NCBI GenBank assembly: GCA_043809245.1
Contig: JAZDDZ010000049.1
Location: 13,864 to 77,863 of the forward strand
Reading direction: 5' to 3'
Source: Candidatus Iainarchaeum sp.
Lineage (GTDB): Archaea; Iainarchaeota; Iainarchaeia; Iainarchaeales; JAZDDZ01
Length of the DNA stretch: 64,000 nucleotides
Shown: positions 1,077-53,147 of the stretch, piece by piece
Layout of the letters: each line of letters begins with the position of its first letter
Position numbering within the stretch: the stretch's first letter is position 1
Notes under the pieces: generated by a model
Database searches by the model: none
Seen by the model: the letters and a program-made list of their open reading frames with translations, nothing else
What the model was told of the DNA's origin: nothing
Position numbers and translations under genes: made by a program

Positions 1077-1224
1077 AAACTAATTGAACGAGTGAAAGAA
1101 ATAATCAAAAAAGGAAAAAAACCCGCGCATTAGGCATATGCCTTTTGCCCCAATTTTGTATGCCTAACCTGTTAGGCGGGCGGACTCTATATTGCGCGCG
1201 CGAACCGAAACGCTTTAAAAGTTT

Positions 1225-1246
1225 AGTATATACTGTAGTATATACT
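1225..1246. promoter_or_regulatory. Two tandem copies of the perfect 10-bp palindrome AGTATATACT immediately before the ATG at 1247; putative operator. A TATA-like TTAAAAGT box lies about 27 nt upstream of the start codon.
   Basis: Read directly as AGTATATACT-GT-AGTATATACT-ATG. The downstream gene encodes an AbrB/SpoVT-like DNA-binding N-terminus. Confidence 0.45.
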
Positions 1247-2080
1247 ATGATAAAGCGTTTTGATGTCTTTGAGGAGGTTGTAAAGGAGGTTGTTCCTTTC
1301 GGCAACGGCAGCATTGTTTACACCCCGAAAAAATGGGTTGGCCAGACTGTAAGGGTTATTCTTGAAGGCGAGCCGCTTAACTTAAGGGAAAGCATTATGG
1401 AACCGCTTCAGCCTTTTTTGGAGCACGTTAAAGGCGTTTTCCTTCACGGGAGTTTTGCGAGGAACGAGCAATCAAGAGAGTCGGACATTGACGTGCTAGT
1501 GGTTGCTGATGAAAAATTCGTGCCGGAGAAAAAAGGCCGGCTTGATTTTACCGTGATTAGCGAGGCTGTTTTACGGAAAGAATTGGCGGGAAAAGACCCC
1601 TTCTATGTTTACAATATTTTGCAGGAAGCCAGGCCAATTTTAAACGAAAGCCTGTTAAAAGAGTTGAAGGGAATTAAAATTGACAAGCGGAACTTTAAGT
1701 GGCTTTTGGATGAAAGCGAAAGCGCGTTAAAGATAGCCAAGGAATTCCTGGAATTGGACAGGCAGCAGAAAAGGGAAACGCTTGACTCAACAGCGATAAT
1801 TTACACAATGGTTTTAAGGCTTAAAAGGCTTTTCATGGTTCAACGCGTTTTGGAAAACAAGAAATACTCAAACAAGGGTTTTAAGGAATTCATGGAAAGC
1901 AAGGGCTTGGCAAAAGAACTGGTTGAACGCACCCATAAAATCTACGGGGCGGAAAGGGATGAAAGAAAAGCCGCTGAAAGCATTTCCATTCAGGAAACCG
2001 GACAACTTTATGAAGTGGTTGAAAACGAGTTAAAGAAAATGAAAGGGGAATACAGGTGCCGTCAAAAAAGAAAAAACTGA
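1247..2080 (+). CDS. Fusion protein: AbrB/SpoVT-like swapped-hairpin N-terminus, Pol-beta nucleotidyltransferase, and a C-terminal HEPN-like helical domain
   Basis: VYTPKKWVGQTVRVILEG is an AbrB/MazE-type motif. GSFARNEQSRESDIDVLVV is an NTase motif. The C-terminal 120 aa is helical and HEPN-like. The track ORF begins at 1145, but the first 34 codons are just a translation of the palindromic promoter region. Confidence 0.6.
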   Translation: MIKRFDVFEEVVKEVVPFGNGSIVYTPKKWVGQTVRVILEGEPLNLRESIMEPLQPFLEHVKGVFLHGSFARNEQSRESDIDVLVVADEKFVPEKKGRLDFTVISEAVLRKELAGKDPFYVYNILQEARPILNESLLKELKGIKIDKRNFKWLLDESESALKIAKEFLELDRQQKRETLDSTAIIYTMVLRLKRLFMVQRVLENKKYSNKGFKEFMESKGLAKELVERTHKIYGAERDERKAAESISIQETGQLYEVVENELKKMKGEYRCRQKRKN

Positions 2081-3912: not shown

Positions 3913-4206
3913 ATGGAGTACGTTTCGTTCAAGCTGGAAAAAAACGTTTTGGAGCAGATTGACAGGGACATGAAGGCGTTTCATTACAGCACGCGCTCGG
4001 ATTTTTTCAGGGAAGCCGTAAGGGAAAAGCTGAAAAGCCTTGGCGAGGACAAGGAAAGGAAAAAGGCATTTAAGGCGCTTTACGCTACAAGAGGCATTTT
4101 CAAAGGAAAGGGCAAGTCAAAAACAGACGAGGAATTCAGGGCTTTAAGGGAAGAGGCTGGAAAGGAATTCATGGAGATTCTTGGCAAAAGATTCAATCAA
4201 AAATGA
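3913..4206 (+). CDS. Ribbon-helix-helix (CopG/VapB-like) DNA-binding protein
   Basis: MEYVSFKLEKNVLEQIDRDMKAFHYSTRSDFFREAVREKL fits the RHH beta-strand plus two helices. The C-terminal tail is basic. Confidence 0.55.
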   Translation: MEYVSFKLEKNVLEQIDRDMKAFHYSTRSDFFREAVREKLKSLGEDKERKKAFKALYATRGIFKGKGKSKTDEEFRALREEAGKEFMEILGKRFNQK

Positions 4207-4615
4207 CTTCTTCCGGAGCCAAAACGCCAATCAAATCATTCAAGCACTCAAAATGCCTGTCCCTCGTGACAAGAACTGCGTTATTGTCCCTTGCAAGTAT
4301 TGCGTGAAGCGCGTCAGATTCATGCGTTTCCCTTCTTTTAGCGGCAATCAGTTTTGCCTCCCTGTATTGTTTGGGATAAATGCTTACACACTCGAGGAAT
4401 GCGCTGAAAAAAGAAAAGGCATCTTTTATCCTTTCGGCAGAATACTCTTTCCTTAGCTCGAAAACTACAAGCTCGGAATAAAGCGCCCTGCACCCGAACA
4501 TTTCACAGTTCTTCAGGAACCTGAATGCGAATTCCCCCAAAGGCCTTAACCCGTCGCTTCTGCCCTCAAAGTAATCCCGCCAGATTGCAGTATCCAAATA
4601 AAACTTTTTAGCCAT
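4193..4615 (-). CDS. PIN-domain (VapC-like) ribonuclease
   Basis: The N-terminus YLDTAIW carries the conserved Asp. Central acidic residues are present, and the C-terminus VLVTRDRHF is the PIN motif. Confidence 0.7.
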   Translation of the reverse strand: MAKKFYLDTAIWRDYFEGRSDGLRPLGEFAFRFLKNCEMFGCRALYSELVVFELRKEYSAERIKDAFSFFSAFLECVSIYPKQYREAKLIAAKRRETHESDALHAILARDNNAVLVTRDRHFECLNDLIGVLAPEEVIFD

Positions 4616-6926: not shown

Positions 6927-6951
6927 TTGGACCCAGCGGGAATTGAACCCG
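6927..6951. repeat. attL-like 25-bp direct repeat TTGGACCCAGCGGGAATTGAACCCG. It is a duplicate of the 3' end (T-arm + acceptor) of tRNA-Ala at 22864..22888.
   Basis: An exact 25/25 match was read in both places. It defines the left boundary of the integrated element. Confidence 0.8.
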
Positions 6952-10397: not shown

Positions 10398-11948
10398 GTG
10401 ATTTTCGTGGACTGGACTCCTGAGCGAATTGACAAATTCTCGGAGCTGTTGGCCGAGGGCAAGGATTTGAGTTACGTTGCTGATTATTTTGGCGTAAGTT
10501 ATGTTGCTGCAAAGCAAGCCAAGTACTTCCATAGCTTGAAGGATAGGTTAAAGCCTGGAAGAAAGAATGTCAAATTGAAACAGGCCAAGGAGCTTAATAA
10601 GTGTGATTTGGCTACTCGAATTCGCGTGCTCCGTGGCGAGGAAGTGCGAAAAGAAGAGGCGGTTTTTGGTTTTTCAGATGACCAGTTAAAGGAATGGTTT
10701 GACGGAGCAAGTGGAGTAGCTAAATTCTGTCAGGACGTTCTTGGATTAGAATTGCAGCCTTATCAGCTTGAAATGATTGAATTAATGCTTTCCCATAAGC
10801 GTTGTTGTTTTGTTCTTGGAAGGCAGTCGGGGAAGGATTTCACTATTTCGTGTTTTGTTTTGTGGTTGGCTTTAGTGCATTCCAATCAAAGAATTTTATT
10901 GGTTTCCGCGGCTCAAAGGCAGAGCGATTTGTTGTTTAACCGAATAATGCAGTTTATTGCCAATTCAACCGAGTTGTTTGACTCCGTGCAAAAATCAAAC
11001 ATGGAAGTAATCCAGTTCACTAATGCATCAGAGGTTTATTCTCTTCCAAGCACTACCTTTATTCGCGGTTTTACAGAGGTAACCCATGTTTTTCTCAACG
11101 AAGCAGCTCATGGAATCACAGAGGAAGCGCTTCAGGCCGTTGAACCAATGCTTGCAATCAAGCACGGCGCGCTGATAATGATGAGCTCTCCTTTGGGCAC
11201 TTCTGGCGTGCTCTGGGATGCCTTCAATAACCCAATGTACGCAAAATTAAAGCTCCCCAGCTCCGTTAACAAGTATATTTCTAAAGAATGGCTTGAAGAG
11301 CAAAGAAAAACCATGTCATCAATTGCCTACGAATGCGAAATAGAGGCTAATTTCTCCCAAGCAATCGACTCTTTCTTTAAAATTGAAACAATCAAAGCTT
11401 GCTCTCAAGAGTACGCACTACGAAGCACTTGCCCAAAAGAAGACGGCAAAAACTATTTCGCCGGCATTGACTGGGGTCGAATACAAGATTCAAGCGCTAT
11501 AACCATTATTTCTAAATACCAAGAAGACCAGTTAAAAGTTGAAGCAATAATTGAAATGTTCAACACTCCGTTTAAAGCCCAAGAAGAAAGAATCAAATCA
11601 CTCTACAAAGAATGGGGCTTGGAAAGAATAGTATCCGAATACGCCGGTTTAAGCATTAATTCCTGTGAAAACCTAAAAACTGCTGGCCTAAGTGTAGAAT
11701 TCTTCAAACCCACAATTGATTCCAAAGCCGAAGCCTACAATTACTTACTCAACAAAATGGAAAACGGGGCAATAACAATCCCCCTGCACGACAAACTCCA
11801 ATACGAGTTAAGAGTATTCAAATTCCAGTTAACCATGCAAGGAAAAATGAAACTCCACCACACAGAAGGCGGGTCAGACGACTTCGTAGACTCCTTATGC
11901 TATGCTGTTTGGGCAACTAAATCAAAATTTATTTGTGCACTGGTGTGA
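10398..11948 (+). CDS. Terminase large subunit-like protein (N-terminal HTH, P-loop ATPase, C-terminal RNase-H-like nuclease)
   Basis: Walker A VLGRQSGKDFT. Walker B/catalytic HVFLNEAAH. The C-terminal acidic cluster AGIDWGRIQDSSAITI plus SDDFVDS is typical of the TerL nuclease. Confidence 0.6.
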   Translation: MIFVDWTPERIDKFSELLAEGKDLSYVADYFGVSYVAAKQAKYFHSLKDRLKPGRKNVKLKQAKELNKCDLATRIRVLRGEEVRKEEAVFGFSDDQLKEWFDGASGVAKFCQDVLGLELQPYQLEMIELMLSHKRCCFVLGRQSGKDFTISCFVLWLALVHSNQRILLVSAAQRQSDLLFNRIMQFIANSTELFDSVQKSNMEVIQFTNASEVYSLPSTTFIRGFTEVTHVFLNEAAHGITEEALQAVEPMLAIKHGALIMMSSPLGTSGVLWDAFNNPMYAKLKLPSSVNKYISKEWLEEQRKTMSSIAYECEIEANFSQAIDSFFKIETIKACSQEYALRSTCPKEDGKNYFAGIDWGRIQDSSAITIISKYQEDQLKVEAIIEMFNTPFKAQEERIKSLYKEWGLERIVSEYAGLSINSCENLKTAGLSVEFFKPTIDSKAEAYNYLLNKMENGAITIPLHDKLQYELRVFKFQLTMQGKMKLHHTEGGSDDFVDSLCYAVWATKSKFICALV

Positions 11949-11951
11949 GGA

Positions 11952-12302
11952 ATGCAAGATTTCAAGCGATTAGAAGTTTGGAAGAGGGCCCATAATTTTG
12001 TTTTGGATATTTATAAAGCCACTGAATTTTTTCCAAAAAGCGAAAAATTTGGCATGATTTCACAAATTAGGCGAGCCTCTGCTTCAATTGTTGCAAACAT
12101 TTGTGAAGGCTGCGGCCGGGAAAGCAAAAGAGAATTTCAGAGATTTCTTTTCATTTCACTTGGATCTGCAAAAGAAACAGAAGGATTTCTACTATTAGCT
12201 GAAGATTTAGGTTATTGCAAAGAAAAAAGGTTGATTGAAGAATTACAAATTATAAGCAGAATGCTTAGCGGACTCATTAAGAGTCTTAACCAAAACAGTT
12301 AA
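11952..12302 (+). CDS. Four-helix-bundle protein (TIGR02436 family, formerly called 23S rRNA intervening-sequence protein)
   Basis: NICEG...SKREFQRFLFISLGSAKE..EGFLLLAEDLGY matches this family closely. Confidence 0.7.
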   Translation: MQDFKRLEVWKRAHNFVLDIYKATEFFPKSEKFGMISQIRRASASIVANICEGCGRESKREFQRFLFISLGSAKETEGFLLLAEDLGYCKEKRLIEELQIISRMLSGLIKSLNQNS

Positions 12303-12392: not shown

Positions 12393-14993
12393 TCATTTAT
12401 AGCCTAACTTTTTCTTTACCTTTGCTAAATTACCCCAATATGAAAAGCAGGCGGATACTAACGAACCAAAACCATTTTTGATTAATTTTTTAGCAGTTAA
12501 TCTTCCCTTGATTTCTTTACTTGCTTTTTTAAATTCTTTCTTTACGTTCGCCCATTTTTTCCAATAATTGGCCTCTTTATGTAACACTCCTTTTTTACCA
12601 AATCGGCCATATTTCAAACCACACATTTTTGCAACAACCCCAAAACCACCAAACTTCAATATTGCGGACTCTAAATCTTGCTGTCCAGATTTTCTTAATT
12701 CCCTGGATGTCGGCATAATCCTGGCTTTTGCAATTTTTTTTATTTCCTTAATTAGTTCCTTCTTTGTCCAAATTCTCCGTACTATTGGGCAACCTATTAT
12801 CCTTCTTGCCTCATTAACGCTGCCAAAAAACCGATAGATCTTTGGGTAGAGTCCGCTTTTACCTGACTTCCTTGCTTCTTCTTGTGTTATAAAATGGCCT
12901 TGCTTGTCGTAAAACGCCTTTAATTCTGCGACAACTTCTTCCTTTGCCCAATGCTTTCTTATAATTGGATAACCCATTTTTTCTCGTACTGTATTAATGC
13001 TGCCATAATGTTTTACTGCATGAGCGTATAACTTATATTTGCCTAATTTTTTGAACTCAGTTTCTTTTGGAAAATGTTTTATTTCCTTTATAATTTTATT
13101 GAAATCTCTCTCAATATTTTCCCAAATAGCATAACTACCTCTCTTTGTGTAATATGTGATGGGATAACCGCACTTATCTGAAAAATAAAATGGCCCTCCA
13201 TTTCTATCAATAGCAACTATAAGGTCAAACCGTTTAGCTTCTTCCAAGTGCTTTCTTGATGGGAAACGCCCTAACCTTTTACAAATCGGGGTTAGCCCCT
13301 CAATTATCTCCTGCTCTGTCCACCCATCAGATTTTATTAAGTGCTTTTTCAGGAATGCCATTTCTTCAAGGAATGATTTTTTCTTATACAATTTTTCGTT
13401 GTGTTTTACTCTCTTACCCGCTTGATAGAAATCTAATTCCAATGGCTCAAGTAAACCAGTTTCTTTATGTATTTTACCTTTATGAATGTTGGATAGTTTT
13501 TTTTCTTTCTCGACCTTTTCAACAAAGTCTTGAATTATTAATAGGTGCCCGAATGCATTAATTACTTTTTTAATCTTGGTTACAGTTCCAACGAAATCTA
13601 AAACCCGCAAATAATTTTTTCCAGAAGCTTTTCTTAATCCCCGACCCAATTGCTGGAAAAAAATTGTGGGGCTATAAGTTGTCCGTAAGAAAACAACCAA
13701 GTTGGCACCAGGAATGTCAATGCCTTCATTGAATAAATCGACCACTAAAATTGTTCTTATTTTTCCCGTTTTAAACCTGTGAAAAATTATCTCTCGTTTT
13801 TGATCATCCATATTGGAATGATAAACTTCCGCGTCTGAAAACAAACCAATTGATTTAACGGAGTTAATATACTTTATTGTTGGGCAAAAAACAATTGTTT
13901 TTGGGTTATCAATTTTGTTCATCTCCCCGTAAATTATTTTTTCAATATCTTCGTCTTTTGTGGGAATAAAAAATTGTTTATTCAACTGCTCCACGGAAAG
14001 CTTTTTGTTTATCGTTTTGAGTTTAGCATAGTCGATGTTGTCAGAAAAAACAGAAAATTTTACAGGAGACAAATAACCTCTAATTAATGATTCAGCTAAA
14101 CCCAAATCAACTAATGGTTTTCCGAAAATACTTTCAATGAATTCATTGTCTTTTCGTGCAGCTCTAAGCGGAGTTGCAGTAATTCCGAGAATAAATTTCG
14201 GCTTGAAATAGGATAATATGTTAGCATAAGTTTGCGCAGGAGAATGGTGTGCTTCATCGATTATGATATAATCAAAATAATCTTTCGAGATTTTTTTGTA
14301 ATGTCTTTTCATTGTCTGGAATGTTGAGAAAACAATATCCTCTTTCCGGAACTTTTTTCCCCCAAAATAAACGCCGAATTTGAACTTTCCTTTTTTCTCA
14401 TTTAGTATGAAGTTAAATTTTTCAGCATTATCAACAAGAATGTCAGTTCGGTGAACCAAAAACAAGGCCTTTTGTCCTTTCTTAATTTGGCTTTTTAAAT
14501 CCCAGGCCGCAACCAATGTTTTACCTAAACCTGTTGCCAAAACCAATAATGCTGCTTTGTTGCCTTTTTCTCTGTGTTCAATAAGGCAGTTTAAAATCTT
14601 TTGTTGATATGGAAACGGCCTATACTTTACAGATTTGGATTTAAATTTTTTCCATTCTTTTAATTCTTCCAAGCCGATTAAATCGATAGGTTTATCGAAT
14701 TTATTTTTTGCCTTGTAAACGGCTTTGGAAAAAACAGTGTCACAGACCAACATTCCTCTATCTGCTTTATAAAAATCCATTGCAGCTGAAACATCCTTTA
14801 ACGCGCTATATCCCACAGTTCCTTTGTATTTTTTGCATTGAACAACATATTCTAAACCATCCTTTAAAGCTAAAATATCGGCACCATAATCGCTTGAAGC
14901 CTTTGTAACCTTAACGTGGTAAAAGCCCTGAGCCTTCAGCTTCTCAGCTACATACTTTTCGAAATCAAAACCAGCCTTCTGTGCTGTCGTCAT
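12393..14993 (-). CDS. Single-polypeptide Mrr-like PD-(D/E)xK nuclease + SF2 (DEAH) helicase + four or five C-terminal homing-endonuclease-associated (HNH_repeat-like) repeats
   Basis: The N-terminus DYGADILALKDGLEYVVQCKKY is the Mrr_cat motif. Helicase motifs I, II and VI are ATGLGKT, IIIDEAHH and QQLGRGLR. The C-terminal 300 aa consist of about 55-aa repeats with W...fGS...A...G periodicity. Confidence 0.75.
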   Translation of the reverse strand: MTTAQKAGFDFEKYVAEKLKAQGFYHVKVTKASSDYGADILALKDGLEYVVQCKKYKGTVGYSALKDVSAAMDFYKADRGMLVCDTVFSKAVYKAKNKFDKPIDLIGLEELKEWKKFKSKSVKYRPFPYQQKILNCLIEHREKGNKAALLVLATGLGKTLVAAWDLKSQIKKGQKALFLVHRTDILVDNAEKFNFILNEKKGKFKFGVYFGGKKFRKEDIVFSTFQTMKRHYKKISKDYFDYIIIDEAHHSPAQTYANILSYFKPKFILGITATPLRAARKDNEFIESIFGKPLVDLGLAESLIRGYLSPVKFSVFSDNIDYAKLKTINKKLSVEQLNKQFFIPTKDEDIEKIIYGEMNKIDNPKTIVFCPTIKYINSVKSIGLFSDAEVYHSNMDDQKREIIFHRFKTGKIRTILVVDLFNEGIDIPGANLVVFLRTTYSPTIFFQQLGRGLRKASGKNYLRVLDFVGTVTKIKKVINAFGHLLIIQDFVEKVEKEKKLSNIHKGKIHKETGLLEPLELDFYQAGKRVKHNEKLYKKKSFLEEMAFLKKHLIKSDGWTEQEIIEGLTPICKRLGRFPSRKHLEEAKRFDLIVAIDRNGGPFYFSDKCGYPITYYTKRGSYAIWENIERDFNKIIKEIKHFPKETEFKKLGKYKLYAHAVKHYGSINTVREKMGYPIIRKHWAKEEVVAELKAFYDKQGHFITQEEARKSGKSGLYPKIYRFFGSVNEARRIIGCPIVRRIWTKKELIKEIKKIAKARIMPTSRELRKSGQQDLESAILKFGGFGVVAKMCGLKYGRFGKKGVLHKEANYWKKWANVKKEFKKASKEIKGRLTAKKLIKNGFGSLVSACFSYWGNLAKVKKKLGYK

Positions 14994-15148: not shown

Positions 15149-15913
15149 TTAATTTTGCCTGCTGCCTAAATTTTTTCTAAGGCTATCTTCTATTATTTTT
15201 TTAGAAACGCGTTTTCTCATCTCAACAGTCAGGCGTTCCGAGTCGACGCCATTATCACTCATGAACTCCAAAATGCCCTTGGAAGTAAATTCCCCATATT
15301 TATTAATGAGCTCTGACTCGGAGATACCTTGAGCACATTCAATCAATTTACTTTCTTTTAATCTGCCTAAAAAACCAACAAGGACTTTGCTTGAATTCAT
15401 ATATTGGTTTATAGGAATAAGCTGATCCCAGAAAAATAAGGCGGAAAATTTTTTATCGCTAAAATATTCTTCATCAAGACCTTTCAATGCAGTACACCAT
15501 CTGCTTTTTTTAAAATCTGGTTCGCATGGCGTAAGTGGCCACGCTTTACATAACAAAGGCCGGTATTTATAGATTCCACACTTATTATTTGACAAAGCAG
15601 GACATGGCTGACCTAAAAGCTTCCAAAGTTGAACAATTCTTGTTTTACTTTTTAAGTCAAAAAGGTATACTTCTGGGATTAATTCGGCTTTAATGGAATT
15701 TTCGTTTAATCCTTTTTTTACGGTTTCTCTTTCAAAATCAGTCAGTATAGTGCCAGGCTTAATGGCTGGCGGCATATAAACTGGGCCATACTGAAATTTT
15801 TTTATTTTTTCATCATCTTCTTGTTCGGTTTTCAAAATATCTTCGTTGCAACAGCGCCCGCATTTTACACAGGAAAATCGCGCTAAATTCTTGGCCATAT
15901 AAAATACTCGCAA
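15149..15913 (-). CDS. YkgJ/UPF0153 family Fe-S/Zn-cluster protein (CxxCxxCC)
   Basis: The N-terminus FSCVKCGRCCNE is the family signature. Additional conserved Cys residues are present. Confidence 0.55.
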   Translation of the reverse strand: MRVFYMAKNLARFSCVKCGRCCNEDILKTEQEDDEKIKKFQYGPVYMPPAIKPGTILTDFERETVKKGLNENSIKAELIPEVYLFDLKSKTRIVQLWKLLGQPCPALSNNKCGIYKYRPLLCKAWPLTPCEPDFKKSRWCTALKGLDEEYFSDKKFSALFFWDQLIPINQYMNSSKVLVGFLGRLKESKLIECAQGISESELINKYGEFTSKGILEFMSDNGVDSERLTVEMRKRVSKKIIEDSLRKNLGSRQN

Positions 15914-20849: not shown

Positions 20850-22001
20850 CTAAGTTGGAGTTTGAGGAGTTTTTTTATTAATGGCTTCATACAATTTGCT
20901 AAACTTTTTTTCTTGCCAGTCATAAAATATTTTTCCGAAAACACGCACCAGAATAGCGTGTAAAATTATACCTATAAAAAAAGCAAGGGCAAAAGCAAAA
21001 ATTAATTGCATAGAAAGTAATATCTGAACCGCCATTGAATTAGCATAAATGCTAGGCAGGTTCTGCACAATGGCGTTTATGGAATACTGTATTAATAAAA
21101 TATAGAATATTACAAGAAACAAAATTGTGGAAATTGCCCACACAATCCAGGAAGTCCAGTGCCTTTGAAAATGAATAAGCGGGACCATTCTTTCTAAAGG
21201 CCAAAATTTTTCATTAGGAATATTTTTGATTATTTTTACTTCTTCAATAGCGTTTAGCTGGTTTTTTAAAGCTGCTTTAATTATCTCCTTGTCATCTTTC
21301 CAATCTGCAAGTATTTTTTTCATAGTTTCAAGATTTATTAGGTTTGGGAAATAGGAAATAAGTCGAATAGTATCTTTCTTACTTAACTTTAGTTTATATA
21401 ATTCATCTATTGCATCCGGGTTTAATTCTTGTTGAGTAAGCAGAGAATCAATTAGCACGGGGCTGTTCCAACTATTTTTAACTAATAGAGATATTGTTTT
21501 AGTTAGCTCTATACCAATAATATTGTAACTATCTATTTCTTGTATTATACTTGTTTGGGCCTCTTTTTTTATTTCCGCAAAAATTTTTTCCTTCCTTAAT
21601 TTCCTAGCTATTGCGCCCCAATTCTCAATTGCTATATCGATGACCGTTAAAACTGCAAGCACTGCAACAATAATAACAAAAATAGTATTCTGTAGGTCTC
21701 CGCTTTTCCAAAGCACCATTAAAAAGGCAATTGCTAAAATACTTTTCCAAGCAGTATCCGAAATTTTCAAAAAACGTGTCAAGACTGATCGTAGTAATTC
21801 AGTAATTGTTTCTAAAAAATCGAAAAATTTTGTGATTGGTCGATTATCCTCGGGTCTTCTGAAAATTCTGCTGCCGATATCAACACTAACGTCAGGCAAC
21901 GTAAATAAGTCATTAGGCATTAATCTTGTAGGTATTTTCTCTTTTCCCATAGCTATATATCGCATAATAATCTTTTTATAGTGCAAAGATAGCTGCTTCA
22001 C
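20850..22001 (-). CDS. Hypothetical polytopic membrane protein
   Basis: Several TM helices at both ends; no motif recognized. Confidence 0.4.
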   Translation of the reverse strand: MKQLSLHYKKIIMRYIAMGKEKIPTRLMPNDLFTLPDVSVDIGSRIFRRPEDNRPITKFFDFLETITELLRSVLTRFLKISDTAWKSILAIAFLMVLWKSGDLQNTIFVIIVAVLAVLTVIDIAIENWGAIARKLRKEKIFAEIKKEAQTSIIQEIDSYNIIGIELTKTISLLVKNSWNSPVLIDSLLTQQELNPDAIDELYKLKLSKKDTIRLISYFPNLINLETMKKILADWKDDKEIIKAALKNQLNAIEEVKIIKNIPNEKFWPLERMVPLIHFQRHWTSWIVWAISTILFLVIFYILLIQYSINAIVQNLPSIYANSMAVQILLSMQLIFAFALAFFIGIILHAILVRVFGKIFYDWQEKKFSKLYEAINKKTPQTPT

Positions 22002-22864
22002 ATCTTCTCAATCAACTCCTTTGCAATCGATTCATACGATTCTGAGTTGAAGACCTTGTTAACCAACTCGAGCTGCTCTTGGTGTGAGAAGAAAATGTAT
22101 TGGTCAGTTGTGTCTTCTTTTTTGTGCCTGGCCAGAACTTTGACTAATTCTTTTTGCTTGCAGAATTGATATAGCCTTGTCAGATAGGTTCGCCTAAAGG
22201 AGTGAGTTGATAGCTTGAATAGCTTCTTTTTGCATGGGTTTTCGTGGCTTGGAGTGAAAGCCTCTGCGTAAATGTTTGTTAGGCCGGCTTTCTGCCTGCA
22301 TTTGCCGAAAAAGTTTCTCAAGTGGTCGACTGAGATTCTTTCTCTTTTCTGGAATGGATTCAACGAAAAGAAAAGAAAGCCATTGGCCTGCTTTATCTCT
22401 TCTTTATAGCGCTCCGCATACATTTGAATGCACTCTAATGCTATTTGAGGCATTGGTTGGTCGGATGGCAGTTCTGCTTTCTCTGTGAGAAGAGAGATTA
22501 CGCCTCTTTCAAAGTCACAGTCTTGCAGCCTTATTTTCACTACTTCTCCGACTCTGAAGCCGCCTGTGAGCATTAAGAACATTGCAAGGCCTTGCTTTGC
22601 TCTTTTAGCGGGAATCGCTGAAAACAGTTTCATTAAGTCAAGGTCAGAGAATACTCTGTAGACGTTTCTGCTTTTAGGCGAAGAACGCTTTTTAATAGAC
22701 GGAAATTTTTCCTTTAACACTTCGCCAGTTATTTTTCGCAGCATTTTCAAATCAGATGCTGCAAGCTGTGTCAGGAATTCGCTCCATTGTTTTTCGAAGC
22801 CAACAATCGACCTTGGCTTCCTTCTGCTAACCGAAAACCGATTGCCTGCTTCCAGACCCGAAAT
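21998..22864 (-). CDS. Tyrosine recombinase/integrase (XerC/D-phage integrase family)
   Basis: The catalytic-domain motifs are LMLTGGFRVGEV (Arg I), HSFRRTYLTRL (His-x-x-Arg) and LARHKKEDTTDQYI (His/Tyr region). The track ORF runs to 22897 but its first 11 codons overlap the tRNA, so the true start is internal. Confidence 0.8.
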   Translation of the reverse strand: MSGLEAGNRFSVSRRKPRSIVGFEKQWSEFLTQLAASDLKMLRKITGEVLKEKFPSIKKRSSPKSRNVYRVFSDLDLMKLFSAIPAKRAKQGLAMFLMLTGGFRVGEVVKIRLQDCDFERGVISLLTEKAELPSDQPMPQIALECIQMYAERYKEEIKQANGFLFFSLNPFQKRERISVDHLRNFFGKCRQKAGLTNIYAEAFTPSHENPCKKKLFKLSTHSFRRTYLTRLYQFCKQKELVKVLARHKKEDTTDQYIFFSHQEQLELVNKVFNSESYESIAKELIEKM

Positions 22865-22936
22865 TGGACCCAGCGGGAATTGAACCCGCGACCTCATCCT
22901 TGCGAAGGATGCGTCCTACCACTAGACTATGGGCCC
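22865..22936 (-). tRNA. tRNA-Ala: tRNA-Ala(CGC)
   Basis: Manual fold: acceptor GGGCCCA/TGGGTCC with a G3:U70 pair, anticodon loop TTCGCAA, T-loop TTCAATT. 72 nt; no encoded CCA. Confidence 0.85.
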
Positions 22937-23736: not shown

Positions 23737-26700
23737 ATGGCTGAAGAGACCGCGGAAAAAGAGGAAGAGGAAAGGCCTTTCGGGGCAGAGGAACGTGTCA
23801 AGGTTTTGAAGAATTCCTCTGAGAAAGACTTGTTTGAGGAAATGCTCGGCGAAGAAAAAAAAGCAAAGCCAAAAGAGGCAAAAGTAGAAATCACGCAGAA
23901 CAAGGAAGCGGGTTTCATTGCGATAAAAGAGCATAAAAAGCCGCGCAAGAAAAGGGCGGAGAAAAGCGTGTTAAAGGACGCCGAAAAGATTGATGAAAAA
24001 TCTATGGAGGAGGGGGGTCAGGAAGAACCAGTAACTGGGGGGGAAACTAGGTTCCCCCGCGGTTCGGAAGAAGAATCAGGCGGTGATGAATGGGGCGAGC
24101 ACCACGATGCCTTGGCTGAATTGGCTGTTGAGAACGGAACAAGGGAGATTGGCACAAAGGAAAAGGACTGGGATTTATACGAAAAGCCTGAAAGGGAAAA
24201 AATAAGGCAGACTCTGATTGAAAAAGCGAAAAAAGCAGGCGAAGAGGATTCAAGCAGTGGCGGAGGAGCGATTGCATTAAAGTTTTTGGACGATGTGGAA
24301 AAAAACTCAGTTTTCATCGGCAGAAAAAAATCAGTGCACAAAAAATTCGGGTACGAGGGCGCGCTGATGGTTGGCAAGGTCAACGAAGACGATTACAAGG
24401 AATCAAAAGTGCATTTGGATTCACTGAACCCGCACGTGATATTCGTTTGCGGCGCGAGGGGAAGCGGCAAATGCCTTACAGGGGGCACGCTGATAACGCT
24501 TGAATCAGGCGAAGTAATCCCAATAAAAGAACTGGAAGAAAGGAACGAAAAACTGTTTGCATTAAACCATGAACTAAAAATAGGGGCAACTAACAGAACG
24601 GAATTCTTTAAGAGAACCGTTAACCGCACACTTTCTTTAAGATTGAAAAGCGGAAAAGAAATAGAGTTAACGCCCGAACACCCCCTTTTCACAATCAACG
24701 GGTGGCTGCCTGCGGAAGAACTGGGAAAAGGCGACAGGATTGCCACGCCGAGGGTTTTGCCCGCATTCGGAAGCAGGAAAATGAAGGAATGCGACGTAAA
24801 ATTATTGGCTTATCTGTTGGCTGAAGGGCATTTGAGCAACCACTTTGTGCTGTTCAGCAACATGGATGAAAAAATCATCTCCGATTTCATGTTAGGCGTT
24901 AGGGAATTTGATGAGGGATTGAAAATAGAGGGTCACGGAGCGCTAGGCTGTTTTAGGGTTGCACAGAAAAAGAAAAAAGTGGACACAAGCCACATTGTAA
25001 GGAATGAACAAGGGCAGTTCACTGATAAGGGATTCATTGTTGCGCAGAAAAGCTCTTTGATGCAGTGGCTTGAAAGCATAGGAATTTACGGCAAGCTGTC
25101 TGCGGAAAAATTCATCCCAAAAGAAGTAATGGAACTGGAGAAAGCACAGCTGGCTTTGTTCTTGAACAGGCTTTTCAGCTGCGATGGAACAATTCACAGG
25201 GTCAGCAGGACAACTAACTGGAGCATTTCAATCGGGTTCAGTTCCGAGAAAATGACAAGGCAGGTGCAGCATCTGCTGTTAAGGTTTGGGATTCTTTCTA
25301 GGTTCAGGAAAAAACAAAGCAAGTTAAAAGGAAAAATATTCAAAAGCTTTGAAACAGTTTTATACGCTGAAAACGTAATTAAGTACCTTAACGAAATTGG
25401 TTTTTACGGCGAAAAAGAAGAAAGGGCTGCAATTGCCTTGCCTGAAATGAATGCAAAGAAAAGGAACCCGAATTTTGACACGGTTCCAAAAGACGTTTGG
25501 GAAAGGTTTCCGTCAGGCAACTGGAAAACAATCGGGAGAGAGTTAGGCTATGCGCCCCAGTCATTCCACAATACAAAACTTTATGCGCCTTCAAGGGAAA
25601 AATTGCTAAAAATTGCCACAATAGCGCAAAACAAGGGCGCACAAATGCTTGCAGAGGCTGACATTTACTGGGATACAATTGAAGAAATCAAGGAAAACCT
25701 TGAAGAAAAAGAAGTATTCGATATTTCCGTGCCCGAGTTCCATAATTTTGTAGCAAATGATATAATTGTGCACAATTCGTACATCCTTGGAGTGATAGCG
25801 GAGGAAATAGCAAAGCACAATCCGAATATAGGTGCTGTTGTGATTGACCCTGTTGGTGTTTTTTGGAGCATGAAATTTCCGAACAAGGAAGAAAAAGAAC
25901 TCCAGATTTTAAGCGAATGGGGATTGCAGGCAAACGGATTGGATAACTTGAAAGTGTTCATCCCTGAGGGAATGAAAAGCGAAACACCGAAAAACACTTA
26001 TGATGGAACCTTTTCGATTCCGCCTTCCTTGCTGACGCCGGATGACTGGTGCTTAACGTACGGAATTGAAAGGTTTTCGCCGACTGGATTGCTGCTTGAC
26101 AAAGTGATTAAAAAAGTCGGCCACGGGCATAAGACCCTTGACGGAAAATATGTGAAAGGAAAAGACAAGGCATTCGGCTTGAATGACTTGATTAATTGCC
26201 TTGAATTTGACGCGGAACTGAATTCACGCGAGAAAGGATACAAGCAGGACTCAATCCGTGCCTTGACCACGAGGTTTGAGGCAGCAAAGACCTGGGGAAT
26301 TTTTTCTGACAGGGGAACTCCTTTGGCGGAACTTTCAAGGGAAGGGCAGCTGACAGTAATTGACACTAGCTTTTTGGAGGACAATGTGACTGCATTGGTG
26401 ATTGGAATTTTGGCGAGAAGGATTCTTGCTGCGAGAAAAATCACGACAAGAAAGGAAGCCGCAAGCCAGTTTAAGTCAGAGGGGGGCATGAAGGAAATTT
26501 TGGAGTTGGAGATTCCGCCGACATGGCTTTTCATTGACGAAGCCCATACGCTTATGCCGAGCGGGAACCAGAAGACTGCGGCAACCGATTCACTGGTTGA
26601 ATATGTGAAGCAGGGAAGAAGGCCGGGCTGTTCCTTGGTTGCGGCAACACAGCAGCCGAGCGCAATTGACACGAAAGTTTTAAGCCAGCTGGACATTTTG

Positions 26701-27978
26701 ATTGCGCATAAATTGATTTTTGACGACGACATAAAAGCGGTGTTCAAGCGCGCGCCGACAATTGTGCCTTCAAGGTACAAGAAAGGCAATTTCATCAAAA
26801 CGCTTCCGGTTGGAACTGCATTGGTTGCAGACAGGAGTGAGGAAACAAGCCGCGCATTCATTATGAAAATCAGGCCGAGGATGAGCCAGCATGAGGGAAG
26901 GGAAGCCGAGGCAACAGACAGGGACATCACCTTGAAGCCCGAGCAAGTGGAAAAATTCGCTTCCGAGGCGATTCTGAGGCAGCTGGAAAGCGATGGAACA
27001 GTTGAGATAAGGGAAATTGATAGAGTTGTTGCCACAATGAGCGCAAAATACAAGGCAAAGGCGCAGCTGTCAAAGGTATTGGATTTATTGGAGAAGAAAG
27101 GCGCAATAGTGGAGAAAGACATTGTGAGGCTGCCTGGAGTGCAGGCGGAAAAAGAAGAAGAGGAAAAAGAGGAAATGAAAAGGGAAGCCGGGGAAGAGGC
27201 ACCTGCAGAGAAAGAGGCACCGCAGAAAGTCGCTGAAGCCGTTGAGATTCTCGCGTTCCAGAACCGATTGGGGGAGAAAGAGGCAAAGACAGCTGTTGAC
27301 AGGTTCAGGAAAAAGAAGGTTTTGGGATTCCTTGGCTCGGAAGAGGAAGTGAAGGCGTTAAGGCTGAAGCATGCAACTGTTTGGAAGGTTTACTTTGAGG
27401 AATTCGGGCCAAAAAACGAGTTCTACCCAAGGGAGTGCTACATAAATTCTTTGGATGGGGAAATGCTGCACTTTGATGGAAAGAAGTTCGTTGAATCAAA
27501 GGGCTTCAGCTTGTTTTATGATTTGGGCGAAGAGCAGTTAAAGGTTGCAAGGGAGTTAAGGGGCAACGTGAAGTACTCCTTGCCGCAGATTGTGGAGAAA
27601 ACAGGCGTTGAGGAGTCAAAAGTGAAGAGGTCATTGGATAACCTCATTTCATTGAAGCTGGCTGGAACAGGCAAGGACCAGAAATCTGGAAAAAATTATT
27701 ATTTCCTTAAAGCGGAAATGGATTTGCCTCCGCGCTCAGACCATGAAATGGTTTCATCGCCGAAAAAAGTTCCATTGGTGAGAAGCGAGGCGGTTGAAAA
27801 GGAAAGGGAGAATATTTCAAGGGAAAAACTGCCTGAAGTGCTGAGAAGGCTTTGGCCAAATGCGCTTGTGAAAAAGGTTTCCGAGATTCACAGGCCTTTC
27901 TGGGAGGCAACGCTTGCTGAAAAAGGAAAGGAAAGGAAGATATGGGTTGACGCGGTCAGCGGGGAAAGGATAAAGTGA
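23737..27978 (+). CDS. FtsK/HerA-superfamily P-loop ATPase (HerA/VirB4-like) with a K/E-rich N-terminal extension, an intein in the Walker A loop, and C-terminal wHTH-like domains
   Basis: Extein Walker A VIFVCGARGSGK|...|SYILGV. Walker B WLFIDEAHTL. A HerA-type AATQQPSAIDTKVLSQLDILIAHKL motif is present. Confidence 0.75.
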   Translation: MAEETAEKEEEERPFGAEERVKVLKNSSEKDLFEEMLGEEKKAKPKEAKVEITQNKEAGFIAIKEHKKPRKKRAEKSVLKDAEKIDEKSMEEGGQEEPVTGGETRFPRGSEEESGGDEWGEHHDALAELAVENGTREIGTKEKDWDLYEKPEREKIRQTLIEKAKKAGEEDSSSGGGAIALKFLDDVEKNSVFIGRKKSVHKKFGYEGALMVGKVNEDDYKESKVHLDSLNPHVIFVCGARGSGKCLTGGTLITLESGEVIPIKELEERNEKLFALNHELKIGATNRTEFFKRTVNRTLSLRLKSGKEIELTPEHPLFTINGWLPAEELGKGDRIATPRVLPAFGSRKMKECDVKLLAYLLAEGHLSNHFVLFSNMDEKIISDFMLGVREFDEGLKIEGHGALGCFRVAQKKKKVDTSHIVRNEQGQFTDKGFIVAQKSSLMQWLESIGIYGKLSAEKFIPKEVMELEKAQLALFLNRLFSCDGTIHRVSRTTNWSISIGFSSEKMTRQVQHLLLRFGILSRFRKKQSKLKGKIFKSFETVLYAENVIKYLNEIGFYGEKEERAAIALPEMNAKKRNPNFDTVPKDVWERFPSGNWKTIGRELGYAPQSFHNTKLYAPSREKLLKIATIAQNKGAQMLAEADIYWDTIEEIKENLEEKEVFDISVPEFHNFVANDIIVHNSYILGVIAEEIAKHNPNIGAVVIDPVGVFWSMKFPNKEEKELQILSEWGLQANGLDNLKVFIPEGMKSETPKNTYDGTFSIPPSLLTPDDWCLTYGIERFSPTGLLLDKVIKKVGHGHKTLDGKYVKGKDKAFGLNDLINCLEFDAELNSREKGYKQDSIRALTTRFEAAKTWGIFSDRGTPLAELSREGQLTVIDTSFLEDNVTALVIGILARRILAARKITTRKEAASQFKSEGGMKEILELEIPPTWLFIDEAHTLMPSGNQKTAATDSLVEYVKQGRRPGCSLVAATQQPSAIDTKVLSQLDILIAHKLIFDDDIKAVFKRAPTIVPSRYKKGNFIKTLPVGTALVADRSEETSRAFIMKIRPRMSQHEGREAEATDRDITLKPEQVEKFASEAILRQLESDGTVEIREIDRVVATMSAKYKAKAQLSKVLDLLEKKGAIVEKDIVRLPGVQAEKEEEEKEEMKREAGEEAPAEKEAPQKVAEAVEILAFQNRLGEKEAKTAVDRFRKKKVLGFLGSEEEVKALRLKHATVWKVYFEEFGPKNEFYPRECYINSLDGEMLHFDGKKFVESKGFSLFYDLGEEQLKVARELRGNVKYSLPQIVEKTGVEESKVKRSLDNLISLKLAGTGKDQKSGKNYYFLKAEMDLPPRSDHEMVSSPKKVPLVRSEAVEKERENISREKLPEVLRRLWPNALVKKVSEIHRPFWEATLAEKGKERKIWVDAVSGERIK
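24472..25776 (+). other. Intein (435 aa) with a LAGLIDADG homing-endonuclease domain, inserted in the P-loop of the ATPase
   Basis: N-terminal splice junction CLTGGTLITL (Cys1). The two LAGLIDADG motifs are LLAYLLAEGHLS and LALFLNRLFSCDGTI. The C-terminal junction is IIVHN|S (His-Asn then Ser+1). Confidence 0.7.
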
Positions 27979-30359: not shown

Positions 30360-31712
30360 CTAAGCGCCAATCTCCTTTTTTATTTCATTTAATATATCGT
30401 GCATTAAGGCATTAATTTGCTTTTTATTTTTGCCTTCAACCATCACGCGGGCAAGGTTTTCCGTGCCAGAATACCGCACAAGAAGCCTGCCTTTTCCCTT
30501 AAGTTTTTTCTCTGCTTTGGATATTTTTGCCTTAACCGAATGCATTTTTTCGAAAGGAATCTTTTCGCGTACCTTGACATTGCCCAATAGCTGAGGCACT
30601 GGAGAAAAAACATTGCTTAAATCGCTTAATTTTTTACCGCTTTTCTTGAGTATCCGCAAAAGCTGCAAAGCGGAAATAATGCCATCGCCTGCTGTTGAAA
30701 ACTCGGAAAAAATAATGTGGCCTGACTGCTCTCCGCCCAAAACCGCGCCGGATTTCCTCATCTCCTGAATCACTGGAATATCGCCGACAGCGGTGCGTAG
30801 AAGCCTGATTCCTTTTTTCTTTAACGCCAATTCAAAGCCGTAATTGCTCATGACTGTTGCGACAACCTTTTTTCCCTTCAGCTTTCCCTTTGAAAGCAAA
30901 TCAAAGGCGAATAATGCCATTAGCCTGTCGCCGTCCAAAACATTTCCTTTCTCATCGCAGACAATTAAGCGGTCTGCGTCGCCGTCCAGGGCAATCCCGG
31001 CATCAGCGTGAAATTTTTTCACCGCGGCGCTTATGACCTCTGGGTGAAGCGCGCCGGAATTTTTGTTGATGTTCAGCCCATCAGGGGAAAGGTTCAATGC
31101 AATTACTTCCGCGCCGAGTTCCTTGAAAACCCATTTCGCTATATCATAGGCGGCTCCGTTTGCGCAGTCAACAACAAGCTTTAATCCCTCAAGGCCCTGG
31201 TTTTCAATGCTTGATTTCACGAATTCAATGTACCTTCCTTTTGCATCGTCAATGCGGAAAGCCTTGCCTATCTGCGCTCCGTTTGCGGGAATTGCATCAG
31301 ACTCAAGGAGCGCCTCAATTTCCCTCTCAGTCCTGTCATCCAGCTTGAAGCCATCAGAATCAAAAATTTTTATGCCGTTATCCTCCGCAGGATTATGCGA
31401 GGCGCTGATTACAATGCCAGCGCATGCGTCAAAGGAACGCGTCAAGTGAGCGATTGCGGGAGTGGGCATTGGCCCCAAAAGCAATACATCGGCGCCAATT
31501 GAAACAAGGCCAGAGGTCAGGGCGGTTTCAAACATGTAGCCGCTCAATCGCGTGTCCTTTCCGATAACGATTTTCGCGTTCTTTTTTTTCTCGCGCTTCA
31601 AAACAATTGCAATGGCTTTGCCGAGCTTCAATGCAACCTCAGGAGTCATAGGGTAAACGTTCGCCCTGCCGCGAATTCCGTCGGTTCCGAAAAATTTTTT
31701 CATAAAAATCAT
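30360..31712 (-). CDS. glmM: Phosphoglucosamine mutase / phosphohexomutase
   Basis: FGTDGIRG N-terminus and the active-site loop SASHNPAEDNG. Confidence 0.8.
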   Translation of the reverse strand: MIFMKKFFGTDGIRGRANVYPMTPEVALKLGKAIAIVLKREKKKNAKIVIGKDTRLSGYMFETALTSGLVSIGADVLLLGPMPTPAIAHLTRSFDACAGIVISASHNPAEDNGIKIFDSDGFKLDDRTEREIEALLESDAIPANGAQIGKAFRIDDAKGRYIEFVKSSIENQGLEGLKLVVDCANGAAYDIAKWVFKELGAEVIALNLSPDGLNINKNSGALHPEVISAAVKKFHADAGIALDGDADRLIVCDEKGNVLDGDRLMALFAFDLLSKGKLKGKKVVATVMSNYGFELALKKKGIRLLRTAVGDIPVIQEMRKSGAVLGGEQSGHIIFSEFSTAGDGIISALQLLRILKKSGKKLSDLSNVFSPVPQLLGNVKVREKIPFEKMHSVKAKISKAEKKLKGKGRLLVRYSGTENLARVMVEGKNKKQINALMHDILNEIKKEIGA

Positions 31713-32455
31713 ATTTTCTGTAAAATCATTATACCATCATAAAGTATATGTTTTGTTTTAAGTATAGTTTTTGGAACCAAAATCCTGAAACCCGCTTTTC
31801 TCAGCATAGCCTCATCAAAGTTTAGGTGCGCAGTACTTGATGAAAGAACCAAAAAACCCCCCTTGTTTAGTTTACCATGAAGTGTTTTAGCCGTGAAAAG
31901 ATTAAGATCAGGATAGCCCCTTGCAGAGGTAATGCAGTCTTTAGAATAAATAACATCAAAGCGGCCTTTAAAACTTTTGTTTAATCCATCTGCATAACCC
32001 CACTCAGCCCTTAATCCTTTAACTTGTTTTTGCTGACTTGGGCTCTCGTCAATGCCAAACATTTTTGCCCCCTGCTCTTTTAATAGTTCCATGAATTCAG
32101 TTGAACCAAAACCAATCTCACAGATTTTTTTACCTTTTAGATTGCCTTTGTAAATGCTTCTAATAAAAGCCATTATAGGGCCATAACCGCGGAGGCTATA
32201 CGGCTCTCCAGAGTTCAGGGTTTTTGATTCCGGCATCATCTCGTAGAATTTTTTCGCCCAATAATCAATTTTTTCTCGGGCCAGTCCCAAACGGTTCATC
32301 TCCCGCTCATATCTGACAACCTGCTTATCAGTTAAAACAAGTTGTCCATTTCTGGCTTTTGCGCCTCCACGCATTAAAGCCCGCGTTGAAAGTTTTGCTT
32401 CTTTCGGCACTGAAAAATGAAATGCTTTTTTCTCAAAACTGGTCCTGGCAGGCAT
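31709..32455 (-). CDS. Class I SAM-dependent methyltransferase
   Basis: Motif I ICEIGFGS. Motif post-I FGIDES. Confidence 0.5.
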   Translation of the reverse strand: MPARTSFEKKAFHFSVPKEAKLSTRALMRGGAKARNGQLVLTDKQVVRYEREMNRLGLAREKIDYWAKKFYEMMPESKTLNSGEPYSLRGYGPIMAFIRSIYKGNLKGKKICEIGFGSTEFMELLKEQGAKMFGIDESPSQQKQVKGLRAEWGYADGLNKSFKGRFDVIYSKDCITSARGYPDLNLFTAKTLHGKLNKGGFLVLSSSTAHLNFDEAMLRKAGFRILVPKTILKTKHILYDGIMILQKI

Positions 32456-53016: not shown

Positions 53017-53147
53017 AGCAAACCAATGCAGAGAAAAATATTTAAATGTGGTGGAATTTATCCCCACAAATAAATATTAAGCCGCCCAACAGCAATATAG
53101 TAAGGCAGTGGAACAGGGCAGCAGTCCGCACTGCAGGAGTTAAGACC

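Follow-up and report, generated by a model that had tools for sequence, protein, structure and literature searches.

SauUSI and the Type ISP enzymes are single-chain restriction enzymes driven by a motor. The nuclease of SauUSI belongs to the PLD family, and its recognition domain, DUF3427, reads 5-methylcytosine and 5-hydroxymethylcytosine. SauUSI, an ATP-dependent enzyme of Type IV, has a helicase-like motor and a target recognition domain (TRD), translocates on double-stranded DNA (dsDNA) and cleaves at a distance (10.1101/2025.10.16.682607). In Type ISP enzymes, one chain joins an Mrr nuclease and a superfamily 2 (SF2) ATPase to a coupler, a methyltransferase and a TRD, and these enzymes likewise translocate on dsDNA and cut at distant sites (PMC4666363). 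Here we report on an 866-aa protein encoded in a 64-kb stretch of DNA from the DPANN archaeon Candidatus Iainarchaeum sp. (hereafter the window, to whose first letter all coordinates refer), in which an N-terminal Mrr nuclease, an SF2 ATPase and five HNH_repeat units follow one another. The gene sits in a ~15.9-kb low-GC element integrated in this genome, and its product is most likely an uncharacterised, methylase-free variant of the motor-driven restriction enzymes.

The gene occupies a minus-strand open reading frame (ORF) at 12393..14993, with an ATG start and its stop codon at 12393-12395, exactly as delineated in an earlier note that was made from the letters of the window and that had proposed the order Mrr_cat, SF2 helicase, HNH_repeat. 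Both the frame and Pfam bear out this order, and the profile check suggested there (Mrr_cat, ResIII/Helicase_C and HNH_repeat) gave matches for all three. An 866-codon open frame in DNA of 34% GC, together with the Pfam E-values, is far beyond chance. The identical NCBI entry (P0001) is annotated as 'MAG: DEAD/DEAH box helicase family protein [Candidatus Diapherotrites archaeon]'.

Pfam, an alignment to Hjc resolvases and an alignment of the family agree in placing a PD-(D/E)xK nuclease domain at the N-terminus (Mrr_cat, residues 8-114; 14652..14972, minus strand; E 4.6e-21, 75.5 bits against a gathering cut-off of 21). Mutagenesis of LlaGI defined the signature of the Mrr family as F-E in motif I, D-x-G-x-D in motif II and Q-x-K in motif III; the extra aspartate of motif II is an Mrr-specific marker, both aspartates and the motif III lysine are essential for cleavage, and cleavage by LlaGI needs D74, D78 and K94 (PMC2790908). 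The archaeal protein carries this signature on the minus strand as F11-E12 (E12 at 14958-14960), D35-Y-G37-A-D39 (14877-14891) and Q52-C-K54 (14832-14840), and it corresponds to the residues that LlaGI requires for cleavage (PMC2790908). The earlier note had allowed that the catalytic residues might be missing on alignment; E12, D39, Q52 and K54 are intact and fall on the PD-(D/E)xK catalytic positions of the Hjc resolvases. D35, G37, D39, Q52 and K54 do not vary in an alignment of 13 family members (A1), where E12 is conserved to at least 90%.

The nuclease is followed by an SF2 DEAH ATPase region spanning residues 124-470. Lobe 1 (ResIII/DEAD, residues 124-276; 14166..14624, minus strand; E 5.6e-37) holds motif I ATGLGKT (G155-K158-T159) and motif II D246-E-A-H249, whose invariance extends over alignments A1 and A2, as well as motif III T272-A-T-P, while lobe 2 (Helicase_C, residues 348-454; 13632..13952, minus strand; E 6.2e-19) holds motif VI QQLGRGLR (Q447-x-x-G-R451-G-x-R454). 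Motifs I, II and VI had been recognised beforehand; these three and motif III (GxGKT, DEAH, QQxGRGxR and TATP, respectively) are invariant in A1 and across 54 sequences, the fixed positions of motif VI in the latter being Q447, Q448, G450, R451, G452 and R454. Membership of SF2 is further indicated by two RecA-like lobes whose folds match RadD, XPB and SauUSI. A family-specific linker (residues 471-556; 13326..13583, minus strand) joins the motor to the C-terminal region and was modelled by AlphaFold as a long helix (471-503), a low-confidence loop (501-520), a β-hairpin (520-539) and a further helix (541-550). Its sequence is 48-72% identical inside the close family and 6-17% identical to other groups.

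The C-terminal third (residues 558-865) is filled by five HNH_repeat units of ~52 aa, starting at W558, W624, W682, W742 and W814. Four to five repeats of about 55 aa had been estimated, so that the upper count stands and the length is slightly reduced. Pfam matches the array to PF18780 (2.6e-13, 50.5 bits against a cut-off of 26) in two stretches; because the units are only 19-35% identical to one another in pairwise comparison, just the two most canonical ones are called, and a hidden Markov model (HMM) seeded with these two strong units recovers the rest. AlphaFold models the C-terminal 310 aa as helical repeats, five equivalent four-helix units with one long and three short helices each (predicted local distance difference test score 82.8 for the whole protein and 90.3 for the array modelled separately). 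The family HMM and the models define repeat 1 (residues 558-610; 13164..13322), repeat 2 (624-675; 12969..13124), repeat 4 (742-792; 12618..12770) and repeat 5 (814-865; 12399..12554), the last being the most basic unit with a net charge of +15. Repeat 3 (682-734; 12792..12950), the most canonical HNH_repeat unit (…FGSVNEARRIIG), includes the best Pfam stretch, 684-734; all five lie on the minus strand. An alignment of family units with canonical units from the Candidate Phyla Radiation (CPR) yields the common core L-G-[RHK]-x-P-[ST] … [FG]-G … G. A Pfam scan found no HNH, GIY-YIG or LAGLIDADG domain in the 866-aa protein. The protein is thus likely to be a nuclease-translocase that depends on ATP and binds DNA through its array.

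The element that carries the gene is bounded by an exact 25-nt direct repeat found by a repeat search, with the distal att copy at 6927..6951 and the proximal copy at 22864..22888, inside the 3' end of a tRNA-Ala(cgc) gene (tRNA call, 22865-22936, minus strand). A tyrosine integrase gene (21998..22897, minus strand; Pfam Phage_integrase, 1.1e-13) abuts this tRNA; its longest listed ORF starts within the tRNA 3' end (overlap 22865-22897), and the real start codon is probably farther downstream. GC content between the att repeats is 0.31-0.40, against ~0.44 outside. On the plus strand, a terminase-large-subunit-like gene (TerL, 10398-11948; PHROG_2, 2.7e-31) and a gene for a four-helix 23S_rRNA_IVP protein (IVP, 11952-12302; Pfam) form a backbone (10398..12302) that is convergent with the nuclease-helicase gene. 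Helix-turn-helix (HTH) proteins and several membrane or secreted proteins of unknown kind are also encoded in the element, in which Pfam and PHROG revealed no recognisable gene for a capsid, a portal or replication. A scan for sigma-70 promoters and terminators, a design that leaves archaeal promoters outside its scope, returned sites no more often than expected by chance. The CxxCxxCC gene upstream of the nuclease-helicase gene (15149-15913) was considered as a partner and rejected, as it occurs in no homolog context and has no PADLOC match.

Two sibling elements were located through the terminase gene. One (L097) has an HTH gene 69% and a TerL 78% identical to those of the window element, on a contig that stops just past TerL. 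The other (L098) shares TerL (69% identity), IVP (49%), a small HTH protein (58%) and the integrase (54%), yet has no nuclease-helicase gene despite this backbone: the corresponding slot, between IVP and the HTH gene, is filled by a DUF4145-domain protein together with two unknown ORFs, and an AbiTii-domain protein follows the HTH gene. A D5_N/DUF5906 primase-helicase is encoded upstream of TerL in L098. Since the slot varies within a conserved backbone, the nuclease-helicase gene is cargo, and its placement inside the element, first proposed in the earlier note, is upheld by the att repeats, the tRNA, the integrase and the GC content as well as by the comparison with L098. To judge from domain matches, one or more of the alternative occupants of the cargo region carry a putative abortive-infection domain. 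The tRNA-Ala element family may be a small provirus remnant or satellite-like element in DPANN archaea.

We examined six genomic contexts, the window itself and those of homologs P0004, P0006, P0011, P0013 and P0124. Within the 64 kb of the window, the host-flank ORFs were scanned in part, and some were judged housekeeping from their sequence alone. Among the scanned element and host-flank ORFs there was no METHYLTRANSFERASE, specificity subunit or partner: DNA methyltransferase, HsdS and GHKL ATPase were all absent, as had been noted before of the first two for the immediate surroundings. The only methyltransferases found among these ORFs lie in the host flank, well outside the element, and are an MTS-type protein with a sub-threshold N6_Mtase score 38 kb away (53046-53849) and a Methyltransf_23 protein (31709-32455). 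The six contexts likewise contained no DNA methyltransferase, specificity subunit or conserved partner, only small-molecule-type Methyltransf_23 genes in those of P0011 and P0013. P0004 belongs to an Omnitrophota island that also contains an integrase, Phage_rep_O and a ThsB-type TIR gene (PADLOC, 1.1e-70); P0011 adjoins an NTase/HEPN-like pair; P0013 is within an AlpA and integrase island; P0124 is flanked by Rep_1/RHH and DUF2779/integrase; and the neighbours of P0006 are uninformative. Four of the six contexts are other integrase-bearing elements. ORFs of ~200-340 aa downstream of three homologs were rejected as a conserved partner, being mutually unrelated and absent from the window. To go by its gene neighbourhoods, the family is a stand-alone gene travelling on diverse integrative elements, several of which have replication proteins of their own.

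Proteins with the full architecture are few and patchily distributed over one archaeon and bacteria. About 13 of them, 49-59% identical, were found among 5.8 billion clusters at 90% identity; a set of 1.84 billion representatives yielded three clusters at 50% identity (P0005, P0123 and P0124) along with fragments; and a single one of 185,579 species-representative genomes contained the architecture. A scan of IMG/VR returned only 25%-identical helicases, and neither INPHARED phages nor PLSDB plasmids yielded a match with a coverage of 80% or more. Within the close family, identity is 52-72% for the Mrr domain and 68-76% for the motor, and only 30-36% for the repeat array, whose unit number varies from 4 to 9. 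In CPR bacteria, a helicase with 4-6 canonical HNH_repeat units and no nuclease is encoded among housekeeping genes (IF-2/RbfA; sigma-70/PriA/def-fmt), and such nuclease-less proteins are common in Saccharibacteria, Colwellbacteria and related lineages (L009:8001-10379; L010/L011:8001-10001; loci L019-L053). A 1250-aa relative, P0044, has RNase III and dsRBD domains in addition. All PF18780 carriers that we retrieved were helicases, which is a consequence of the search design. The earlier description of the repeats as homing-endonuclease-type is probably too narrow: the nuclease-less helicase and repeat module is widespread in CPR, and the arrays, common in these bacteria, seem to be an accessory of helicases in general more than a homing-endonuclease speciality.

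These housekeeping relatives raise the question of whether the archaeal protein is a cellular DNA-repair helicase-nuclease (RadD/XPB-Bax1-like) that came to lie in the island by chance, and RadD and XPB are indeed good structural and profile matches for its motor. A repair function would leave unexplained why the gene resides within att-bounded, low-GC foreign DNA, why the full architecture is so extremely rare and patchy, and why it is repeatedly associated with integrases (P0004, P0013 and P0124). We give this explanation the slimmest chance of any considered here.

Shorter or differently equipped relatives of the nuclease-motor portion were found elsewhere. On Ruegeria and Rhodococcus plasmids, genes for Vsr, Dcm, (GIY-YIG), a ~780-aa GHKL (HATPase_c_3) ATPase, a ~560-aa Mrr-helicase and a small hypothetical protein lie together (L012:886-8096; L013:3611-9929), and an arrangement of GHKL ATPase, Dcm, Vsr and helicase-nuclease has been predicted to be a MORC/paraMORC-type restriction-modification (R-M) system (Iyer et al. 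2008, PMC2292703). In the Proteobacteria Photobacterium and Pseudomonas, a Mrr_cat-helicase of ~730-750 aa is always followed by a Sigma70_r4 HTH protein of ~812-827 aa (L005:10001-14639; L006/L007/L008:10001-15250); in Pseudomonas, a stand-alone 134-aa Mrr_cat protein comes after this partner. The proteobacterial module sits in mobile islands resembling integrative and conjugative elements (RadC, YqaJ, DUF932). It is not catalogued as a PADLOC system, its ~820-aa partner has no PADLOC match, and it may be an uncatalogued two- or three-gene system. The partner is unlike the repeat region of the archaeal protein (BLASTP E ≥ 2), so a simple origin of the C-terminus as a fused partner is unsupported.

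The plasmid clusters bear on whether the archaeal protein is the R subunit of a Type I, Type III, ISP-like or MORC-type R-M system, with the methyltransferase gene at some other place in the genome. ResIII and HsdR-type profiles match its motor, our inspection covered 64 kb of the genome, and, since relatives do occur in methylase-containing clusters, the R-M connection is real at the level of the family, although it is absent at the window locus. Against such a role, the R-subunit and repair-helicase equivalogs of NCBIfam all score far below their cut-offs (EcoAI/FtnUII HsdR, 132 vs 550 bits; PRK11448, 68 vs 729), neither N6_Mtase, N6_N4_Mtase, Dcm, HsdS nor GHKL was present among the window ORFs scanned, and none of the six contexts supplied a DNA methyltransferase. 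The protein moreover has a putative DNA-recognition array of its own and moves between elements as a single gene. An R subunit is accordingly a very improbable identity for it.

Starting from the established domain composition, catalytic and ATPase motifs, fold, stand-alone status and variable cargo slot, we propose that the protein is a single-chain, ATP-driven, DNA-translocating endonuclease akin to restriction enzymes that serves diverse integrative elements as an accessory gene and would act on incoming or competing foreign DNA. For the steps that follow (DNA binding by the repeats, dsDNA translocation, the cleavage trigger, the defence role and the self/non-self rule) we infer a course from the parts. 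The basic, HTH-like five-unit array would bind duplex DNA, anchor the enzyme and supply any target selectivity. By analogy with SauUSI and Type ISP, the SauUSI-type SF2 motor would hydrolyse ATP and translocate on dsDNA, probably reeling the DNA against the anchored array, and the N-terminal Mrr nuclease would cut once translocation stalls, ends in a collision or reaches a second site. As no methyltransferase takes part, some other means has to spare self DNA: the enzyme could, in the manner of Type IV, depend on a modification or DNA feature that is foreign to the host, the array could select by sequence or structure, or expression or activity could be controlled. How a methylase-free translocating nuclease spares its own genome is a question that this design raises.

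A biological role in defence or inter-element conflict is, judged from genomic context, moderately probable. It draws support from the ThsB-type TIR gene near homolog P0004 and from the AbiTii-domain gene in the cargo region of L098. The earlier note had suggested a novel single-protein anti-virus or anti-plasmid system; that the gene acts singly and is uncatalogued in PADLOC agrees with our results, while for the defence role it is the context that speaks. A related idea is that the protein is a host-directed or addiction-type weapon, degrading the DNA of the host or of rival elements on induction or penalising loss of the element. This idea overlaps the defence reading in mechanism and differs in who benefits. 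A nuclease with no evident self-protection on a TerL-bearing integrated element would suit it, as would the position of P0011 beside a toxin-antitoxin-like pair; no antitoxin or immunity partner is conserved, however, and the AbiTii-domain and TIR neighbours fit defence cargo better. We consider a weapon quite unlikely, and both this reading and that of housekeeping repair are less well supported.

Several observations weigh against a methylase-free restriction enzyme acting in defence. No self-protection mechanism is evident, the roughly six genomic contexts are too few for a statistical defence-island test, and for DNA binding by HNH_repeat units we found neither a solved structure nor a biochemical precedent in the literature. 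The nuclease-less helicase and repeat module lives in the housekeeping neighbourhoods of CPR bacteria, and the helicase core resembles replication-module helicases of temperate phages (PHROG_16 'DNA helicase', 2.4e-66), those of Streptococcus and Enterococcus phages being ~30% identical over the core only (coverage 40-49%); motor and repeats are therefore not intrinsically defensive. Finally, the window element has no recognisable replication protein, whereas L098 has the D5-like primase-helicase, and it is conceivable that the protein serves the DNA metabolism of the element.

Because the element lacks a recognisable replicase and the motor has relatives in phage replication modules, the strongest competing explanation is a helicase-nuclease that helps the element to replicate, recombine or process its genome. 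The gene is nevertheless missing from L098, which keeps the backbone, and homologs ride on elements with replication proteins of their own, Phage_rep_O for P0004 and Rep_1 for P0124. The phage helicases have neither the Mrr nuclease nor the repeat array, and by sequence profile no replicative or repair helicase in the PDB comes nearly as close to the motor as SauUSI does. For these reasons we think a replicative role unlikely, if deserving of attention, and continue to favour the methylase-free restriction enzyme.

The repeats invite a more specific idea. The tandem array could be a modular DNA-reading head in which each ~52-aa HTH-like unit contacts a few base pairs, and unit number and rapid divergence set the target. 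If so, the protein would be a methylase-free, motor-driven restriction enzyme whose specificity evolves through repeat shuffling, and the repeat family, widespread among helicases of CPR and DPANN, would gain a first function. Searches with the repeats gave little: the C-terminal 312 aa as sole query retrieved one unannotated match, and a search with a profile of 34 repeat units retrieved none. Modular reading is a speculative extension to which we attach a rather low probability.

Other features of the window lie outside the element. Adjoining the tRNA-Ala gene, a plus-strand gene (23737-27978) encodes a 1413-aa HerA-like ATPase (DUF87/HerA_C) whose sequence is split by an intein (Intein_splicing, 3.8e-26) carrying a LAGLIDADG homing-endonuclease domain. 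The host flank holds an AbiEii toxin/AbiEi antitoxin pair (Type IV toxin-antitoxin/abortive infection; 59561-60775, plus strand), and the host region an IS66-family transposase (DDE_Tnp_IS66, 7.9e-39; 41229-42569, minus strand). Two genes of the left host flank may be of toxin-antitoxin type, one for a nucleotidyltransferase (NTP_transf_2/Polbeta, matching DUF2080 weakly; 1145-2080, plus strand) and one for a PIN-domain protein (4193-4615, minus strand). A 1063-aa secreted protein (60765-63956, minus strand) shows, on inspection of its translation by eye, two long duplicated halves around a fibronectin-like segment.

No PADLOC model spans the whole protein, which is accordingly not a catalogued defence system; this was one of the checks that the earlier note had called for. 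The best PADLOC matches, to mREase_IV (PDLC03658/9, 3e-51 and 1.7e-47), cover the motor only, at positions 216-561 of profiles of 953 positions (SauUSI-sized), and since the nuclease-less CPR protein P0018 matches the same models equally well, the match marks a motor lineage rather than a system. We found no paper on an Mrr-motor-HNH_repeat architecture and no database model of it. Each part and the overall logic have clear precedents and the family is tiny; its interest lies in the methylase-free design, the putative repeat-based recognition module, the setting in mobile elements of DPANN and Omnitrophota, and the reassessment of HNH_repeat as a helicase accessory. If our reading is correct, it also provides a candidate defence gene in mobile elements of two groups, DPANN archaea and Omnitrophota, whose defence genes are almost unstudied.

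The more distant systems differ in partners, in domain order or in both. Compared with HsdR of Type I systems, adjacent hsdM and hsdS are absent among the scanned window ORFs and in the homolog contexts. In Type III Res the nuclease is C-terminal, whereas here it is N-terminal, no Mod gene was present in the scanned ORFs, and PADLOC REase_III matched at only 8.6e-5. The match to Zorya ZorD (5.2e-13), an SNF2 helicase with a C-terminal Mrr-like nuclease that accompanies zorABC, is confined to the Mrr part and the ZorD C-terminus; the domain order is reversed, and no ZorA/B-like genes occur among the element and window ORFs scanned. The Rad25-like MORC/paraMORC helicase-nucleases share the fusion of Mrr_cat with ResIII/Helicase_C and are ~31-33% identical over residues 1-479, but they are ~560 aa long, have no repeat array and belong to GHKL/Dcm/Vsr operons whose partners are absent from the element and the close-homolog contexts. 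The proteobacterial Mrr-helicases have Mrr_cat, the same motor lineage (37-40% identity in the motor) and residence in mobile islands in common with the archaeal protein, and one of them, P0100, shows a single sub-threshold HNH_repeat-like unit after the motor; they differ in having a conserved large downstream partner, absent at the window locus, and in having no tandem repeat array. In the CPR helicases the motor is 39-44% identical and the canonical repeats (3e-80 in P0018) align with the window units, whereas the Mrr domain is missing and the neighbourhoods are housekeeping.

The closest characterised relatives, on profile and model comparisons, are SauUSI and the nuclease-motor half of the Type ISP enzymes, not HsdR. 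Searched against PDB sequences, a family profile matched SauUSI (7clg) at 8.4e-59, ahead of an HsdR fragment (1e-26), RadD (2e-23) and XPB (1e-15), and Foldseek with the full model ranked LlaBIII (Type ISP) first at 4.8e-22, followed by SauUSI at 1.3e-20 and then RadD and XPB. Together with the low score of the EcoAI HsdR model, these rankings show that the earlier label 'HsdR-like' had picked the wrong nearest neighbour. With SauUSI of Staphylococcus aureus (PDB 7CLG) the protein shares the lineage of its SF2 motor; it differs in having Mrr_cat and five HNH_repeat units, with no PLD or DUF3427 match in Pfam. With Type ISP it shares an N-terminal Mrr nuclease (D-x-G-x-D / Q-x-K) joined directly to an SF2 translocase in one chain; the coupler, the gamma-class N6-adenine methyltransferase and the TRD are missing (no N6_Mtase or Eco57I match at E ≤ 1), and with no methyltransferase in the chain there can be no self-protective methylation of the Type ISP kind. 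The archaeal protein has the N-terminal half of a Type ISP enzyme with a motor of SauUSI lineage and a third part foreign to both, and, if our reading holds, it would extend the single-chain, motor-driven restriction enzymes represented by SauUSI and Type ISP to a methylase-free form with repeat-based DNA recognition.

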